DNA of 64,000 bases from contig OZ024749.1 of NCBI GenBank assembly GCA_964016885.1, positions 54,560,001-54,624,000 on the forward strand, in the 5' to 3' direction. This document shows positions 1,751 to 36,670 of this stretch, piece after piece. A model generated the notes under the pieces. It saw only the letters and a program-made list of their open reading frames with translations. It had not been told where the DNA came from and made no database searches. Within the stretch, counting starts at the first letter, position 1; each line of letters starts with the position of its first letter. The translations under genes and the position numbers were made by a program. The stretch is from Eledone cirrhosa (lineage: Eukaryota).

Positions 1751-2616
1751 ATATATATATATACAGGTTTAGTTAGCCTTCTTTCTACGAAGTTGAATCT
1801 CAGGTTTCTCTGGTGTATTTTAATGATAGGGTGATGGCCAGAAATTGAACCCACAACCTTAGGATAGTAAGTCCAACATCCTAACCCACCCCACCTTCAC
1901 TGCTAGAACATTGTCTATTACATATGAAGGCTTCTTGTGGTAGATATAACAAGTATTTTTTAATTAAAAGCCAGGACTGTGAAATTAATGAACTGTGAAG
2001 AGGAAACACTTTAAAAAACAAATTAAGGAGCAGTTTTTTTATTAACCCTAACTAATCCCTAACCCTTAGAATTTTAATGTTTTATTCAACAAACTATATA
2101 CAGCTATTACAATGTGGAAATGTACACACACAAAAACTGATATATTAACTTTTCACTTCCTGTTGTTGACATTTTCATCACACCTGAGACCTGGTCATGA
2201 AATTACTATATATACTCGAATATAAGTCTCCCACCTCCCTATATAATAATGAAAATTATTGTGTACAGTGTTCAGGTGCACTACAACTAATCAAAGGTGC
2301 ATGTATAGTACATAGAATAATGTACAAATGACAATGACCAGGTCACAGAGGTGTGACCATAATTTTTGACACCACCAAATAAATAGTGAATACAACAGTT
2401 TGTGTGTGTGTGTGCATGTTTGTATGTGTGTATATATATGTGTGTATGTAATGGCTAAAATGGCTGTTCCATGAGATAAATTAGAAACAGTTATAAACAT
2501 AAAACGATGAAGATTATTTTGTTGTTAATTTGTTTGTTTGTTGCTTTTGTGACAAAACTAATATATTTCTCTCTCTCTCTCTTTCTATCTATCTATCTCT
2601 CTCAAAGACAGCCAAC

Positions 2617-4104
2617 ATGCAGCGAGATGCGTTCCTTCTGTCAGTGGTACTTCTCTATTGCATCATTTTCCTCTTGCTGCACTCCCATCTTAAAAAAGTG
2701 AACAACCCTGTGACGAAAAGACTCAGTGCCATGAAAGAAGAGAATTACCACTCAGATAAAACTACTGCAACAACAACAACAGAAACTGTACTGATACAAC
2801 AAGAACAAATAGCAAATCTACAACAACCATTTCCAAAACTACATGGATATAAAGGTAATTATATAATTAAACGTAATTACAGCGAAGCAAATATATACAC
2901 ACCTCCATCCAGAAAACCCAAGCTGGAAAATAATTCAGATTTGAAAAAAAATTGTTCAAAATGCAAGAAGCTGCCACATTCTGGAAGTTTCCAAAATATA
3001 TCAGGTATTTTTGTATTGGCCACATTTTATGACCAAAGAATTTCTTCCAAGCATCAAATTCGTATTTTAGCCATACAACATGCTAACGATAAACGTAAAC
3101 TTGTCTGCTGGTTTAGAAACGGTACATATTTGGTCCAGTCATATGCCAGTAAATATGAGATGTGTGAGAACCATGGACGTAAATATGGAGGCTGGATATA
3201 TTCGTGTTCAATACCGAAAGGGATCACGTTAGTTGAAGTTGTCTACCTGTCTCTCCCTACTGATAGTATCCTTGCCCCGCTAACAAAAATGGATTTAATT
3301 TCACTCACCAAAACAGGAACTAAGAAAACATTCGGAGTTTGTATACCTCCTTTGTTTGGCTCGATAGGAATGACAAAACTTGTACAATTTTTAGAACTGA
3401 ATCGAATTTTAGGAGCCTCGCATTTCCATTTTTATCTCCACAATGCTTCTAGCAGTGTTCGAATTATACTAAAACATTATGCCAAGTTAAATTTAGCCAC
3501 ACTTTTTGAATGGGAGCTTCCTTCAGTGATAACAAACAACAACATATGGTACCATGGACAACTTCTGGCAATACAAGACTGTCTCTATAGAAATATGGCG
3601 AATTTCCAGTTCCTACTATTCTCAGACTTAGACGAATTTGTCATCCCACGTAAAACATATACATGGCCGAGATTAGTAAATTATATGAAAGACTTGAATA
3701 AAAATTACACCAGTACCAGTAAGGACTCTCTAGGATTCTCTTTCAAAAGTGCATTCTTTGACCCTTGGCAGACCCCAGACACAGGCCAACAGTTGAGTTA
3801 TTTACAAAGACTACAACGAAGCAAATCAATTAGTAATGTTCGAACGAAGGTTATGATACAACCTGAGAAAGTATTTGAGTTAGGGATTCATCACGTGAGC
3901 AAACCAATATGGGACAATTCAAGTATAACTAACATCAGTCCAGATATAGCAATGATACATCATTATCAACCATGTATGGTGAGGTATGAACCAAAAATGC
4001 AATGTTCACCAAAAATAAGAGACGCAACAATTCTCAAATACACAAAGCAACTCAAAATAAATTACAATCAAAGAGTTAAGGAATTATTCAAAGATTTCTG
4101 GTGA
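2617..4104 (+). CDS. Glycosyltransferase family 92 (DUF23, GALT-1-like beta-1,4-galactosyltransferase); type II membrane protein, 495 aa, single coding exon
   Basis: Open frame inside ORF 2530..4104. The likely start is ATG 2617 (GCCAACATG context), just after a polypyrimidine tract and AG at 2606-2607. It has an N-terminal TM segment (FLLSVVLLYCIIFLLL) and a Thr/Gln-rich stem. GT92 motifs follow: CIPPLFG, FLELNRILGASHFHFY, WYHGQLLAIQDCLYR, DxD motif FSDLDEFVIPR, RTKVMIQP..GIHH and HHY. ATTAAA at 4145-4150. Confidence 0.9.
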   Translation: MQRDAFLLSVVLLYCIIFLLLHSHLKKVNNPVTKRLSAMKEENYHSDKTTATTTTETVLIQQEQIANLQQPFPKLHGYKGNYIIKRNYSEANIYTPPSRKPKLENNSDLKKNCSKCKKLPHSGSFQNISGIFVLATFYDQRISSKHQIRILAIQHANDKRKLVCWFRNGTYLVQSYASKYEMCENHGRKYGGWIYSCSIPKGITLVEVVYLSLPTDSILAPLTKMDLISLTKTGTKKTFGVCIPPLFGSIGMTKLVQFLELNRILGASHFHFYLHNASSSVRIILKHYAKLNLATLFEWELPSVITNNNIWYHGQLLAIQDCLYRNMANFQFLLFSDLDEFVIPRKTYTWPRLVNYMKDLNKNYTSTSKDSLGFSFKSAFFDPWQTPDTGQQLSYLQRLQRSKSISNVRTKVMIQPEKVFELGIHHVSKPIWDNSSITNISPDIAMIHHYQPCMVRYEPKMQCSPKIRDATILKYTKQLKINYNQRVKELFKDFW

Positions 4105-4570: not shown

Positions 4571-4908
4571 TCATCATCATCATCATTTTACGTCCACTTT
4601 TCCCTGCTTGCAAAGGTGGGACAGGAACTGATTCTGGCTTGATTTCTACAGCTGGATGCCCTTCCTAACACCAACCTCATTTTTACAGTGTGGCTGGGTG
4701 CTTTTTTGCCATGGCACCTCCACGACCACTTTACAGTGGAATGATATGGACCCCAGTCCTATCATCTCATTTCTACAGCTGAGTAAACTGGTGCAATGTG
4801 AAGTAAAGTGTCTTGCTCAAGGAAACAACACATCACCCAGTCTGAGAATTGAACTCACAACCTTTCGATTGCAAGCCCAATGCTCTAACCACTAAGCCAT
4901 GTGCCTCC

Positions 4909-24667: not shown

Positions 24668-25371
24668 AATATATATTGCCAACCATGAAAGACCACCACC
24701 TCGTATAATATTAGAAACTTAAATGTTATCTTTTATTTGACGATATTTTGGGGAAGATGTCTGCCACTATTGGTAACAGTAGGGAAATATATAGATATTT
24801 AAATATGAACAACAGGTTGACTTAAGAAACAATGAGAAAATTTGGAATGTACAAGACAGCCTAATTTCATGTGTGTGTGTGCGTGTATGTATGTGGTATA
24901 TGCATGTTGTGTGTGTATGTATGAGTGTATATGCATGTTGTGTGTATGTGTGTCTAAGTAACTATGTATATCTATGAGTGACTGTGTCAATGTGTGTGTG
25001 TATGAGTGTGTGTGTGTAAAAATAAATGAATTTACTCCACTTAAATTTGGTTAAAACGATTCGGACATTAAAAACTATATTAAAAGAAAACATCGTTTTC
25101 AAAAAACAAAAAATGGAAGAGAAAGGAAATTGAGGAAAGAAATATTTTCAAAAATATATATTTTTCATGTAACAGAACGAAGAAATTCTGTCAGAAAAAT
25201 TAGATTTCGACCAATTGAAAAAAAAAATCTCTAAACAGACATTTATAACAGTCAAAGGGAGGTTAATCTTGACATGCAGCAAGAAGGCCAGTACGATTTA
25301 TTTCTCTTTGTTATTTCAATCGGTTTGAAAATCGCCACACGACGCTCAACCAGATAAAAATAATAATAATT

Positions 25372-25549
25372 GTTTCTATTTTAGGCACAAGGCCAGCAAT
25401 TACCCAGTACATTACTGGTACTTTATTTTATAGATCCCGCAAGGATGAAAGGCAAAGTCAACCTCGGCCGGATTTGAACTCAGATCGTAAAGGGACGTAA
25501 CTATGCTGAAAAGCATGACCGACCCTCTACCGATACTGCCAATTCACCG
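25372..25549 (-). mobile_element. Meta-domain SINE
   Basis: Reverse complement of the same core and tail. Confidence 0.85.
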
Positions 25550-26353: not shown

Positions 26354-26427
26354 CTGAAATATTGAAGATCAATAATATAACACATCAGAAAGTGTATAAA
26401 AAATAACAAGTATGGTAGCTTATTGTA

Positions 26428-27514
26428 TAGAGAATAAATTCCAAACCTGGAAGCAGGGACTAGAGAGAAAGGGCCTCAAAGTCAACATGACAAAGACTAA
26501 GGTCCTTATAAGTAGACGAGAAAACAGAACCCAGATCCCCTCAGGGAAATGGCCTTGCTCAGTATGTAGGAAAGGTGTAGGTAGGAACTCCATTCTTTGC
26601 CCCAAATGCAAACAATGGGTACACAAGAGATGTAGCGGGATCTCAGGAAGCTTAATTAAGAATGTAGGATTCACATGCAGCAGCTGTGCTGAAACAGCAA
26701 GCAAACAGCCACAGGAAACAAGTACCACCAATCTCTGGGAGGGCCCTGTAGAAACAGTAGACAGCTTCTGCTACCTAGGTGACCGAATTAGCAACGGAGG
26801 TGGGTGCTCAGAAAGTACAATAACTAGGGTAAGAACGGGATGGAAGAAGTTTAGGGAACTACTACCACTGCTAGCTGCAAAAGGCTTCTCCCTCAGAATG
26901 AAAGGCAGACTGTATGATGCGTGTATCCGAACAGCGATGTTGCATGGTAGAGGAATCAAATGCTGCGTGCAGGAGAGGCGGTTACGCTGGTATGGACATG
27001 TGATGCGTATGAAGGATGACAGCTGCATAAAAAGGTGCAGAGCACTAGAAGTTGATGGAAACCGCGGAGTGGGGAGACCCAAGATGACTTGGGATGAGGT
27101 GATAAAAGCCGACCTTACCCAACTACACCTCTCAAAGTCAATGACACACGACCGTGACTTCTGGCGTCACGCAGTAATACAGGGTACCCGACCTCCCATG
27201 GGTACATGCTGAAGCATATAAACAATATGCCCCCCCCCCCCACCGCAAGGTGGTCGTGGAGGTGCCACGGCAAAAAAGCACCCAGCCCACACTGTAAAGT
27301 GGACGTGTAGGCGCCACGAAAAAGCACCCAGCACTCACTGTAAATGAGGTTGGTGTTAGGAAGGGCATCCAGCTGTAGAAATCAAGCCAGATCAGTTCCT
27401 GTATGAGCAAGGCATGGTCAGCCGACCAGACACTGCCCACAACAGGACAACCCGTCTAACCCATGCTAGCGTGGAAGAACGGACGTAAAACGGTGATGAT
27501 GATGATGATGATGA
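26428..27514 (+). mobile_element. RTE-clade LINE 3' fragment (related subfamily) with in-frame ~45-codon internal deletion, 3' UTR and (ATG)n tail
   Basis: ORF 26412-27212 aligns with the C-terminal third of the 29295-31160 ORF; AMLHG is joined directly to RGIKCC. Confidence 0.92.
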
Positions 27515-27529
27515 TTCATATATATATAT

Positions 27530-27845
27530 ATCATCACCGTTTTACATCCGTTCTTCCACACTAGCATGGGTTAGACGGGTTGTCCTGTTGTGGGCAGTGT
27601 CTGGTCGGCTGACCATGCCTTGCTCATACGGGAACTGATTCTGGCTTGATTTCTACAGCTGGATGCCCTTCCTAACACCAACCTCATTTACAGTGAGTGC
27701 TGGGTGCTTTTTTTCGTGGCACTTACACGTCCACTTTACAGTGTGGTGCTTTTTTGCCATGGCACCTCCATGACCACTTTGCAGTGGGAGGGTGTGGGGG
27801 CATATTGTCTATATGCTTCAGCTTGTACCCGTGGGGGGTCGGGTA
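27530..27845 (-). mobile_element. RTE 3' UTR copy, tail-to-tail with 26428-27514
   Basis: Reverse complement of ~27185-27500. Confidence 0.9.
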
Positions 27846-28926: not shown

Positions 28927-31420
28927 TCATCATCAACGTTTAACGTCCGTGTTCCACGCTTGCATGGGTTTGGACGGGGGTATTCCCACTTGAGGCAAGA
29001 GTGATTGTCTTGCTCGCATAGGACTGTCTGGCAGGTTTTCTACAGTTGGATGCCCTTCCTAACACCAACCACATTTACAGTGTGGGTCTGGGAGGTTTTT
29101 ACTGTGTTGCCTACACGGCCACATTACAGCGTGGACTGTGTGTTTTTTGTCGTGACACCTACACGATCTCATTTGTTTCGGCCTGGATGGCGTGGCACCA
29201 ACATAACTTTACATAGAAGGGGGTGGTGTGGATGGGGGGGGGGGGGGTATTTTGTTAGAGATGCCTACTGGCTGTAGTAGGTTTTACTATGTATTTAGGT
29301 AAGGCGGGTCTTCTCTGTTACTGAGTACCGCCAAAGGTCTCGGTCCAGTGACATTGTCTTGGAGAGGTGTAAGTGTGTGAGGTCGGAGTTTATCAGCTCG
29401 TCCCAGGTTTTTCTAGGTCTGCCTATTCCGTGGCTACCGTCTATCTTTATTGCCCTGACCTTTGTTATACAGCTATTGACTTTCATGCACATCACGTGTC
29501 CATACCAACATAGCCTTCTCTCGAGTAAACAACATCTGATCCCTCTTATTTCTAATTTTTTCCTTAGTTCGTTTATGCTTTGCCGTTCACGTATATTACT
29601 GTTACACATCCAGCGGAGCATGCAAGCTTCGTTCCTCTCTAGTCTGCGTATATCCTCTGCACACAATGCCCAGGTCTCACTGCCATGCAACATTGCTGTT
29701 TGTATGCAGGCATCATACAACCTGCCTTTCATTTTTAGGGAGAACCCTTTAGCAGCTAATAGTGGTATAAGCTCTCTGAACTTTTTCCATCCAGTTCTGA
29801 CTCTAGCTACTGTACTTTCAGAGCACCCTCCCCCACTGCTGATTTTGTCACCCAGGTAACGGAAGCTGTCCACTATTTCTATAGAGCCCTCTGCGCAGTT
29901 GTAAGAGCTAGTATTTTGTGGGCACTTGCTGCTACTTATTGCACCAGAGCACCGGCCACATGTAAAATCTATGTTCTTAGTTAGCTTACCTGTGATCCCA
30001 CTACATCTTTTATGCACCCATACTTTGCATTTGGGACATAAAATGGAGTTTCTGCCTACGCCTTTCCTACACACTGAGCATGGCCATTTCCCAGAAGGGA
30101 CCGCCGCCTTGTTTTCTTTCCTACAAACTAGAACTTTAGTCTTAGCCAGGTTAATTTTAAGGCCTTTTGATTCTAGGCCGTGCTTCCATGTTTGGAATTT
30201 CTTCTCTAGCTCGGTCATTGATTCAGCTATGAGTGTCAGGTCGTCTGCGTATAGGAGTTCCCATGGGCAGCCGGTCTTGAACTCCTCTGTTATAGCCTGA
30301 AGGGCAATAATAAATAGTAGGGGGCTGAGAACAGAGCCCTGATGGACGCCAACTTTTACGCTAAACTCTTCACTATATTCGTTGTTAATTCTAACCTTGC
30401 TGACTGTTTCTTTATACATGGCTTGTATAGCTCTCACAAGCCATTCGTCAACACCTAGTTTTCTAAGAGCCCACCAGATAATGGAACGGGGGACTCTGTC
30501 GAAGGCTTTCTCCAAGTCGACAAAAACTAAGTAGAGGGGTTTACCTTTAGCTAGGTACTTCTCCTGTAGTTGTCGTACAATGAAAAGAGCGTCTGTGGTA
30601 CTTTTGCCTGACACAAACCCGAACTGCATTTCATCTAGGTCAATTCTCTCTCTGATTAGTTGCGCTATTACTTTTTCCGTGACCTTCATGACCTGGTCGA
30701 TTAGTTTAATGCCTCTATAGTTACTCCTATCTAGGGCATCTCCTTTACCCTTATAACAGTTAACGATGATGCTGCTATGCCAGTCCTTTGGAACAACCCC
30801 ATTCTGTACGACTTGGTTAACTATCCGGGTGACCATGGTGTGTCCCACCGTGCCAGATGCCTTCAGCATCTCAGCAACTATTTCCGAAGGCCCAGCCGCC
30901 TTACCCGTCTTCATATCCTTGATTGCCTTACTTATTATACTCCCCTCAACTAACACTGCTGGTCCCTCTATTGGGTCGATGTGGGGGAGACTCTCTTTCT
31001 CCCATTTATTCTCCTCATTTAGTAGCCTTTCATAGTGACACTTCCAAGCTACCTTCTTATCAGCGTCGGTGATGGCAAGTACGCCGTCATCATTAAGTAC
31101 ACACTTCTCCCCGACAATATCACGGTTTTCTTTGACACATTGCCTAGCAATCCTGAACACCTCACGTTTTTGGTCCTCACATGCTTGAACTTTCTTTCCT
31201 CTGCTTCCCTTCTTGCAAAGTACACTTGTCTCCTAGCTTCCCTCCTGGCCACTTGATAGTCTTCTCTACTTCCCCCATCCCGCCATACTTTCCAAGCCTG
31301 CTTTTTGGCCTTAATTGACCCCTCCACCTTACTGTTCCACCACCATGTTACTCTCCTCCTGCCTACAGGTCTGCTCCAGCCACAGACTTTGTCTGTCGCC
31401 ATCAGCAGGTTTGCTTTCAG
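28927..31420 (-). mobile_element. RTE-clade LINE, 5'-truncated, with one frameshift near 31180; RT ORF 29295-31160, 3' UTR and (ATG)n tail
   Basis: RT motifs KGKGD..NYRGIKL, QFGF, FVDLEKAFDRVP, GVHQGSVLSPLLF and LLYADDL; C-terminal RRLCWYGHV and GRPRKTW. Upstream frame 31049-31450 encodes TWWWN..V. Confidence 0.95.
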
Positions 31421-31489
31421 AATGACAATCAATAAAAGTTTATATCTCACATGAAAATATCAAAAATGCCTGACTAATGAGGTCATAAT

Positions 31490-32157
31490 GGTTTCTGATT
31501 TAGGCACAAGGTCAACAATCTACCCCAGTGCCTTACTGGTACTTTATTTTATCAACCCTGTAAGGATGAAACACAAAGCTAACCTCAGCGGGATTTGAAC
31601 TCAGAACGTAAAGAGTCGTAACTATATGCCACAGAGCATGTTGTCCAACGCTTTACCAATACTGCCCTTAATGAGGTCATAATAAGTCTCATGTAAAATA
31701 TGTCTCATGTATATTCCAAAATGATTTAAATAATTGTTTCTACTTTTGGCACAAGGCCAGCAAGTATCCCAGCGCATTACTGGTACTATTATCGACCCCA
31801 TAAGAATGAAAGGCAAAGTTAACCTTGGCGGGATTTGAAGAGGTTAACTTTAAAATATTATTAGTTGATCAGAGAAGCGAGAGAGACCCGACTCTTTGCT
31901 ACGACCATTATAGCAGCTGGCTGTGTTACAGATATTTCTGCATTTGAGATTCCTACAGTTTAGTTTTACAAAATATTAAATAATTGTTTCTACTTTTGGC
32001 ACAAGGCCATCAATTACTGGTACTTTATTTTATCGACCCCGTAAGGATGAAAGGCAAAGTTAACCTCGGCAGGATTTGAACTCAGACCGCAAAGGGACGT
32101 AACTATGCTGGAAAGCATGGCGTCCGACCCTCTACCAATACTGCCAATCCACCGCCC
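31490..32157 (-). mobile_element. Cluster of three Meta-domain SINE copies
   Basis: The CTGGTACTTTATTTTATCGACCCC.TAAGGATGAAAGGCAAAG core occurs three times; the third has AAAATATTAAATAAT on both flanks (TSD). Confidence 0.85.
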
Positions 32158-32769: not shown

Positions 32770-33103
32770 TCCCATAACTCCTTGGGGAGTCGTGGGGGTG
32801 CCATATTGATATATGATGTTTCTAGGTAATTTTAAAACCTGGTGGAGCCCATCTCCCCCTCTCCAGGTTTGAATACAGCAGTTTTCTTCCAGAGAAGGAA
32901 AGAGAGAGTGACAGAATGGAAGTGAGAAAGAGATATAGAAGAAGAATCAACCCCAGTACTAGACTGGTACTTTCTTTATCGACCTTGAAAGTATGAAAGG
33001 CAAAGTTGACTTCAGCAAGATTTGAACTGAGAGGGCAGAGAGCCAAAATAAATACTGCAAAGCATTCTATCCAACGTTCTAACGACTCTGACAATTTGCT
33101 GCC
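32770..33103 (-). mobile_element. Meta-domain SINE with a long alternative tail (second copy 42200-42525)
   Basis: Same head and core, but the tail AAACCTG...GAGCCCATCTC...CTCCAG...TGAATACAGC is shared only with 42200-42525. Confidence 0.75.
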
Positions 33104-35818: not shown

Positions 35819-35929
35819 CTCACACACACTCACATATACACTCACTCACTTTCTCTCTCTCTTTCATACACACACTAATTCACTCACAGATACACACACA
35901 CACACATACACACACTAATTCACTCACAG

Positions 35930-35980
<51 letters not shown>

Positions 35981-36229
35981 TACATATACATATATATATA
36001 GACTTTGTCTAATTTGTGTATATGTAAATCTTTATATTTGATAATCTCCGATAAGGTTGAGATGCAATTTAGGCAATATTAGGCTGCGCTTTCTAGCAAC
36101 CAGCCCACTCGCCGTAAGGCAGCAATCACATTCTTTTTGACTTGACCACTGCCACGTCACAGTTCTTAGCCATTTTGAATTCGTTTCTGGCGGGGATCAT
36201 TTAAGAAAAATCTTTGTCCAAGTGAGTTT

Positions 36230-36311
36230 GTTTCCTGATGAGTTCGAAGCTCGAGAATTTATCCTTGATGGGATATTTCCGAAAACGAACGAAACCCTAA
36301 AGGGTAGAAAC
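36230..36311 (+). ncRNA. Type I hammerhead ribozyme, complete canonical core
   Basis: Stem I GTTTC (36230-34)/GAAAC (36307-11). Core CTGATGA 36235-41. Stem II GTTCG (36242-46)/CGAAC (36286-90) enclosing a 39-nt partly paired extension. GAAA 36291-94. Stem III CCC-TAAA-GGG plus the A-U pair. Cleavage triplet GUA, cut after 36306. Confidence 0.88.
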
Positions 36312-36605
36312 GTAATCCTGGTATGTTTATATGCGTTTTTTCTTCTAACTTTAATTTTATACCTAATTGTGTATGGTTGACGATATATTTAATCGATTTC
36401 CACGTGCTGTTGAAATGTTGGGTAAATATTCTATAGCTGTTGATCGCGAATAGATGGCTGTCGTTTATTTATCTATTATTTCTTCATAGGTGCCTTTTAA
36501 TCTTATAGCCTGGTTTAATTGTTTTTTTTGTGTGGTTGATTATGCTAATTGGGAGAGGAAATGGTGTATATATGTTATCAAATGATTCTATGGACATAAT
36601 TTATA

Positions 36606-36670
<65 letters not shown>

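Follow-up and report, generated by a model that had tools for sequence, protein, structure and literature searches.

What does a hammerhead ribozyme with an intact core do in a non-coding stretch of the Eledone cirrhosa genome: is its RNA cut, which sequence carries it and how does that sequence move? The ribozyme occupies positions 36230–36311 (+) of the window, i.e. of the whole stretch of 64,000 nt that was analysed. As read from the sequence, stem I is made of GTTTC (36230-34) and GAAAC (36307-11), and the core of CTGATGA (36235-41), GAAA (36291-94) and the UH dinucleotide TA (36305-06). Stem II (36242–36290, +; delimited by fold and subfamily alignment) has 5 bp, GTTCG (36242-46) with CGAAC (36286-90), and a 39-nt irregular extension between the two strands (36247-85). 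Stem III (36294–36305, +) has an A-U and three C-G pairs with a UAAA loop (CCC-TAAA-GGG, 36295-304), and the predicted scissile bond lies between 36306 and 36307 (+). This arrangement, CUGANGA, GAAA and UH with stems I–III and an open stem I, is that of a type I hammerhead; a plant LTR retrozyme, which has type III hammerheads in its LTRs, was rejected on the grounds of this topology.

The minimum-energy fold of 36220–36320 contained all three hammerhead stems as well as the inner pairs UCG/CGA, GAA/UUC and UAUCC/GGAUA (z -2.35, with 3 of 200 shuffles equally good). A strict type I descriptor had a single match in the window, at this site, and none in 200 local dinucleotide shuffles. Pairing probability of stems II and III was at least 0.9 both in 36200–36340 and in the full 605 nt; that of stem I was 0.67 in the former but just 0.2 in the latter. 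The original prediction of a canonical type I hammerhead with a complete core and three paired stems is thus confirmed by sequence, fold, descriptor and the covariation described below, and the 39-nt extension of stem II, with the inner pairs proposed for it, is present in the minimum-energy fold. The Rfam hammerhead models, suggested as a check, gave no match, neither at the gathering score nor at E<=10, likely because of the long stem II. A long extension is retained in every aligned subfamily, with a sequence that differs between them. A conserved UGAG 5' of stem I is a candidate for a tertiary contact between loop 1 and loop 2.

The ribozyme had been placed in a ~600-bp non-coding island (36001–36605) bounded by microsatellites, possibly a monomer. 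There is no ORF of 100 aa or longer across the island, and it is flanked by (CA)n/(TA)n at 35865–36000 and by (TA)n at 36612–36668, the presumed target of insertion; the end, however, is at 36611 and not at 36605. Nor did the monomer stand: 36001–36611 (+) is a 5'-truncated copy of a repeat, covering unit positions 1–611 of ~686 (0.89 unit), with one hammerhead and no tail. With 611 of 686 bp and one ribozyme, this copy cannot alone release a monomer or a circle, and it is likely an inert dead end. Given the ORF search and the comparison of the unit with ten PLE (Penelope-like element) proteins, to which it has no similarity (best E 0.15), the repeat has the make-up of a non-LTR retrozyme, i.e. 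it is non-coding, carries a type I hammerhead and has no LTR/PBS/PPT layout. Between the ribozyme and the 3' end a long imperfect rod hairpin is predicted by folding (36328–36572, +; z -3.4 in the window, while 14 of 20 thinned relatives folded with z of -1.5 to -5.9).

The expectation that the genome holds other copies was borne out, many of them dispersed and some in tandem, the latter defining the unit length of ~686 bp. A search of the same genome with 36001–36605 returned 4252 candidates; many of the 40 that were scored are full-length at 95–96% identity, which is also the identity of the copies nearest to that of the window. Exact-motif matches, which are lower bounds on copy number, amounted to at least 1863 for the 3' end, at least 324 for the cut site and at least 730 for the 5' core, with 0 in reversed controls. 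Sister subfamilies have 75–85% identity, and a further set at 65–79% has the palindromic stem III CCAUGG (2301 motif matches). Tandem copies with two or more ribozymes, which the window copy alone is not, were seen at family level in loci L005, L239 and L254 and in L252/L253 (G000:C1:92.9857-93.0004 Mb), where ~24 head-to-tail units of the CCAUGG subfamily have an inverted arm in front. Mixed unit variants in this array suggest later duplication; the array is a candidate source locus.

Evidence on cutting comes from the ends of these insertions. We counted, genome-wide, copies with family sequence beginning at a given base. Where the base before G36307 was not A, 25 of 31 cases were insertion junctions starting at G36307, and six were point mutants. 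One base 3' (36308) junctions made up 12 of 17 cases, and one base 5' (36306) 2 of 10, both with (GA)n flanks. Control A|G sites had 3/26 and 1/14, i.e. at most 4 of 40 (Fisher p 1e-9). At unit ~57 there was none in the first 100 of 624 matches, with a pattern that included the family base and gives a background rate only. In an independent sample of 79 loci, chosen by the 3' motif, the interval 303–316 contained 11 of 99 5' ends (scan statistic 5/5000). The cut had been predicted after 36306, and it is at 36307 (and 36308) that the genomic 5' ends of the family pile up, dropping at 36306. As many copies start exactly at the predicted cut, it is likely, on this genomic evidence, that the family RNA self-cleaves after A36306 and has done so in living cells. 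In 22 of the 25 cases the base immediately before the junction was T, which points to an A that was added without a template and paired with the TA target. Deletions at the junction, as are typical of template jumping, were absent from the 31 rows at G36307; one 2-nt insertion was present in the 36306 set.

Palindromic subfamilies, with different downstream sequence, had junctions at the same point in 16/67 and 9/12 cases, counts without control boundaries of their own; the second set had 2 chance matches in its reversed control, and the pattern for one palindromic sub-variant had 0 matches. The original prediction held that a stable stem III should let this ribozyme cleave as a monomer, whereas animal type I hammerheads usually have a weak one. 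The premise is sound, weak palindromic stem III being published for animal PLE hammerheads (PMC4209133); still, since the CCAUGG relatives share the pile-up, a stable stem III is not required for cutting. In the literature that we searched, which comprised papers outside subscription and without their supplements, we found no comparable mapping of insertion ends. Such ends record cleavage at single-base resolution, and the end-counting test is cheap and applicable to any genome.

Comparison of copies indicates that the ribozyme is under selection. Pairing was assessed at 13 pairs in 33 representatives picked by the core pattern; the inner stem II extension was left out on account of its poor alignment. 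In this set 92% of stem cells were paired and 7 of the 13 pairs had changed on both sides, in line with the covariation that had been anticipated among relatives; 0–1 of 500 shuffles were as good in stem pairing and two-sided change and all slid controls were exceeded, a figure that relatedness inflates. In 143 units picked by coverage, N7 alone among 13 core positions had a second allele above 8%, compared with 220 of 548 positions unit-wide; the search motifs by which units were collected had in part predetermined the 3' half of the core. The catalytic core is maintained across 30% divergence with no subfamily-level change in it; GUC replaces GUA in one subfamily (45/67 rows). The first pair of stem II (36242/36290) has changed on both sides between two young subfamilies, being G-C in one and U-U in the other; U-U is found at the base of stem II also in the axolotl HHR_Amex2 (PMC7229834).

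Stem III lengths in the family run from 6 to 10 nt, with palindromic CCAUGG as part of the series and the window form as the longest. In a midpoint-rooted tree of 158 units, the CCAUGG clade stands apart from a ladder with stem III of 7, 8, 9 and 10 nt; hairpin energies range from 0 to -3.7 kcal/mol, the latter being that of the window variant. The direction of stem III change is one that we infer from this tree, rooted without an outgroup. The CCAUGG relatives resemble the minimal hammerheads described for PLEs in PMC4209133 in that helix III is short and palindromic and helix II enlarged; unlike there, stem III occurs in one lineage of the present family in graded lengths, up to a stable one of 4 bp. 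Tests of monomer versus dimer cleavage could make use of these naturally occurring stem III variants.

How the repeat is inserted can be read from the other ends. The cut-site motif was used to select 28 loci; their 36 arms all had 3' ends at unit 600–612 (27 arms) or 30–46 (9 arms), and the 3' flank was TA-rich in 28 of the 36. The two fixed 3' ends, unit 610 and position 37 of the next unit, are 113 nt apart, and both end in TATAT; the 5' ends of insertions are variable. In the window, the main end is the small hairpin followed by TATAT at 36588–36611 (+), the putative first start of reverse transcription, and the putative second start is TATAT at 36033–36037 (+, unit ~37), a fixed 3' end (tail) in other copies. 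Head-to-head inverted insertions joined a 610 arm to a 37 arm in 21 of 43 cases and two 610 arms in 1 of 43; the remaining 21 of 43 had an arm end not assigned to either 3' site. Partial tandems, inverted 5'-truncated arms, one-sided tails and microsatellite targets are shared with PLE insertions, for which PMC8557442 describes this layout along with a bias to (TA)n. Here we infer insertion by PLE-type target-primed reverse transcription.

The closest biochemical parallel is PAc, the Poseidon PLE of Anolis, which as a purified enzyme used two internal start sites at an AT-rich target and extended both strands (PMC11167929). In PAc, as here, the two starts give rise to a tail and the hammerhead lies upstream of them. 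Unlike PAc, the present element has no ORF, and its tail is 113 nt as against 30–40; both starts here end in TATAT, matching the target, while those of PAc are without homology to it. By the account in PMC11167929, RNA-seq of PAc did not reveal any RNA ends at the cut site; in the present family that site is marked by genomic ends.

We are fairly confident that the window holds a truncated copy of a non-coding repeat that is dispersed in thousands of copies, the RNA of which likely self-cleaves after A36306 and is likely pasted into (TA)n by a reverse transcriptase-endonuclease borrowed from a PLE. In the mechanism that we propose, the endonuclease would nick (TA)n, often on both strands, and the nicked ends would serve as primers for reverse transcription at the two internal TATAT sites; in inverted insertions each strand would use one of them. 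On cleaved RNA the enzyme would run off at G36307, often with the addition of one untemplated base, and leave a dead copy without the ribozyme; on uncut, re-ligated or circular RNA it would cross the cut site seamlessly. Linear, partly cut multimers may also serve as templates. At family level, the repeat has every feature of animal non-LTR retrozymes that could be tested and behaves as a PLE-mobilised non-autonomous hammerhead element.

Whether the template is a circle is a separate question. Since most copies run through the cut site without a break, many of the templates were uncut, re-ligated or circular. Unit 317–577 stops 25 of 76 arms on the first pass and 16 of 18 on the second (p 2e-5), an excess that would follow from an encounter of the enzyme with its own cDNA on a circular template; more-than-unit copying from circles has been proposed for PLE hammerheads (PMC4209133). 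That the core is conserved, though cuts of one-ribozyme RNAs give dead copies, argues for a cleave-and-ligate step, as demonstrated in mussel, coral and axolotl retrozymes (PMC7229834). On the other hand, insertions at L005, L155 and L146 pass one or two cut sites and stop at the next, which speaks against a pure circle and fits linear precursors, as does the fact that second-pass stops of 37 arms and 610 arms share unit positions, not length. Units of one insertion had rare variants in common in just 9 of 41 pairs where they were direct and 3 of 10 where they were inverted, proportions that do not discriminate between circles and multimers. Within the explanation by PLE-mediated pasting, we lean slightly towards two-ribozyme loci that would release unit-length RNA, which is circularised and sustains the lineage.

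The best of the alternatives keeps the element and the helper but does without a circle: the element would be a purely linear mini-PLE of ~850 nt with terminal redundancy, which starts at ~unit 560, spans one unit and ends at unit 37. An internal promoter would drive its transcription and the RNA would be copied without being cut, while the ribozyme would do no more than trim or remove RNA, or its fold would be a protein-binding site. Tail-ended arms indeed cluster at 777–867 nt, the second-pass stops share unit coordinates, some arms stop at the second or third cut site, and uncut RNA is described as the main substrate of the anole PLE (PMC11167929). However, a single transcription start at unit ~550 is not supported (~8 copies truncated within 14 nt in the first 100 of 1187 matches), and arms of 2.4 and >3 units exist besides the 24-unit array. 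Also, an RNA with one ribozyme would cut only to dead copies, and yet the core has been held across the divergence of the family. A linear history is possible, though we tend to doubt it.

In a bolder reading, the record would be the genomic archive of a viroid-like RNA replicon. The PLE enzyme would roll self-cleaved circles, primed in a telomerase-like manner on TATAT at two sites and stalling soon after one full round; RNA lineages would evolve far faster than host DNA; and one lineage would have lengthened a dimer-dependent palindromic stem III stepwise into a stand-alone ribozyme. The unit tree has internal branches of ~0.3 substitutions per site and tips of similar length, ~0.025–0.035, throughout. 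Taken jointly these propositions are tentative and rather unlikely to hold all together; if true, they would make this the first genome-level record of a full retrozyme cycle.

As to the enzyme required by PLE-type insertion, ORFs with PLE RT and GIY-YIG domains are abundant in the genome (10595 candidates), and most PLE ORFs examined have the Neptune-type cysteine linker, which has been proposed to favour microsatellites (PMC8557442). At L076 (7139-7266), L235 (1308-1435) and in the flank of L008 the 3' end of one Neptune-type PLE runs into (TA)n, and at several loci hammerhead units lie directly beyond it, in either orientation. Family-like neighbours of PLE ORFs are set apart from them by (TA)n or other sequence, having been inserted independently at (TA)n that they share. 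The most probable helpers of the 686-bp element are Neptune-type PLEs, with long open frames at L078 2488-5019 (+), L077 5309-8122 (-) and L079 1775-5062 (+), of 844, 938 and 1096 aa, as candidates for intact ones. Candidate head-to-head PLE/unit junctions were noted at L138 and L035.

A closer relation to PLEs would be that the copies are stranded pseudo-LTRs (pLTRs), i.e. truncated 3' ends of an autonomous coding PLE, with a unit that does not propagate itself. The anatomy of the copies equals that of PLE ends, hammerheads are typical of pLTRs (PMC4209133) and Xenopus retrozymes match pLTRs (bioRxiv 10.64898/2026.07.22.740005). We searched for such a partner in 20 GIY-YIG loci and 20 ten-kb stretches and ran the unit profile on the 40 PLE loci; no autonomous PLE with the unit as terminal repeat was found among these 40, which came from 150 scored of the 10595 GIY-YIG candidates, so that the linkage to RT + GIY-YIG ORFs put forward as a check did not appear. 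Moreover, all arms longer than one unit run into another unit and never into an ORF (111 mapped loci), and the unit is unlike the PLE proteins compared. We consider pLTR origin improbable. The element is not itself an autonomous PLE, since it has no RT + GIY-YIG ORF inside. Two other candidate partners were rejected: the ribozyme pairs ~1.6-3.3 kb apart at L249 and L250, which proved to be only neighbouring units or unlinked PLE pieces, and the RT + PHD ORF 5 kb upstream of the ribozyme, which is LINE-like and unlinked.

It could also be argued that the element is real but that the peak at 36307 is due not to cleavage but to a reverse transcriptase held up by the folded ribozyme, or to transcription that starts there. 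A shoulder of 5' ends at unit 314–322, just 3' of stem I (about 8/22 in one count), fits stalling, and part of the pile-up could indeed be due to stalling or end trimming. Yet the ends peak at the first base 3' of H17 and drop off at H17 itself, where junctions masked by a flanking A are few (2 in the first 100 of 187 matches); a stall before stem III would retain A36306; the position is the same in subfamilies with weak stem III and different sequence; and a G precedes the site in 0 of 25 junctions. A peak exactly 3' of H17 is most simply explained by run-off of the enzyme at the 5' end of RNA that had cleaved itself, and we find it hard to credit either stalling or a start as its cause. A SINE-like element mobilised by a LINE, or a satellite that spreads at the DNA level, with the ribozyme incidental in either case, is very improbable, for although LINE-like RT copies occur in the window and one long array exists, the internal paired 3' ends, the tails and the arms of more than one unit are characteristic of PLEs and the copies are dispersed and 5'-truncated, with no tRNA head reported in the unit.

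The element mobilised by PLE-type insertion has known relatives. Like the animal non-LTR retrozymes of PMC7229834, it is non-coding and low in GC, with a canonical type I hammerhead and head-to-tail units; its unit is ~686 nt compared with ~220–390, and it occurs mostly as dispersed partial tandems in (TA)n, with a long stem II, rather than as arrays. Circles have been demonstrated for those retrozymes and are a proposal here. A PLE helper and a circular template were proposed there; insertion ends were mapped here, and the string 'truncat' is absent from the main text of PMC7229834. In a 2026 preprint (Li, Clavereau, Pollet; bioRxiv 10.64898/2026.07.22.740005) retrozymes are regarded as non-autonomous PLE derivatives. 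The present unit falls within the 51-972 bp range given there, and monomers, dimers and co-occurrence with PLEs are shared. The PLE link in the preprint is by co-distribution and pLTR phylogeny, mostly in vertebrate genomes; here it is by insertion mechanics, with no matching pLTR among 40 loci. Compared with Neptune/Naiad, with their (TA)n bias, and non-autonomous Chlamys such as MRC1 (PMC8557442), the element is non-coding and hammerhead-bearing.

Thus, of the suggestion of an undescribed ribozyme-bearing retroelement, the relation to PLEs and retrozymes holds, but elements of this kind are already described in the two retrozyme reports; what goes beyond routine is the base-precise record of cleavage together with a non-coding unit that bears the start-site signature of PLEs, neither of which turned up in the literature searched. 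Two questions are open in that literature: what mobilises animal retrozymes, for which PLEs have been proposed (PMC7229834; bioRxiv 10.64898/2026.07.22.740005), and whether PLE hammerheads cut in vivo and are of consequence, the ribozyme being dispensable in vitro and without RNA ends by the account in PMC11167929. A non-coding hammerhead element with a two-start-site, both-strand PLE signature bears on both.

The window contains several other features. A LINE-like RT ORF (RVT_1, 645 aa), which we take to be RTE-type, lies at 29295–31232 (-) and has a PHD finger directly after the RT domain; an inverted, more decayed relative with 76% identity occupies 26400–27212 (+). Nested inverted repeats, 87–100% complementary, surround 27515 (27185–27845), in a head-to-head arrangement that resembles an inverted insertion, here of a different element. 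A dispersed SINE-like repeat has five copies (25362–25549, 31481–32154, 32975–33101), three of them ~240 bp apart. A 533-aa open frame at 2503–4104 (+) has a glycosyltransferase family 92 domain (E 1e-37), and a weak tRNA match (33 bits) at 4838–4901 (-), adjoining (AT)n, may be a tRNA-derived SINE head. Elsewhere in the genome at least six further hammerhead families were seen (loci L078 6700 + 7159; L080/L081/L084/L092; L082; L087 8068-9553; L079/L082/L086/L094), several of which adjoin PLE ORFs or form tandems of 459 and ~490 bp; their stem III ranges from 4-nt palindromes to 14-nt hairpins.
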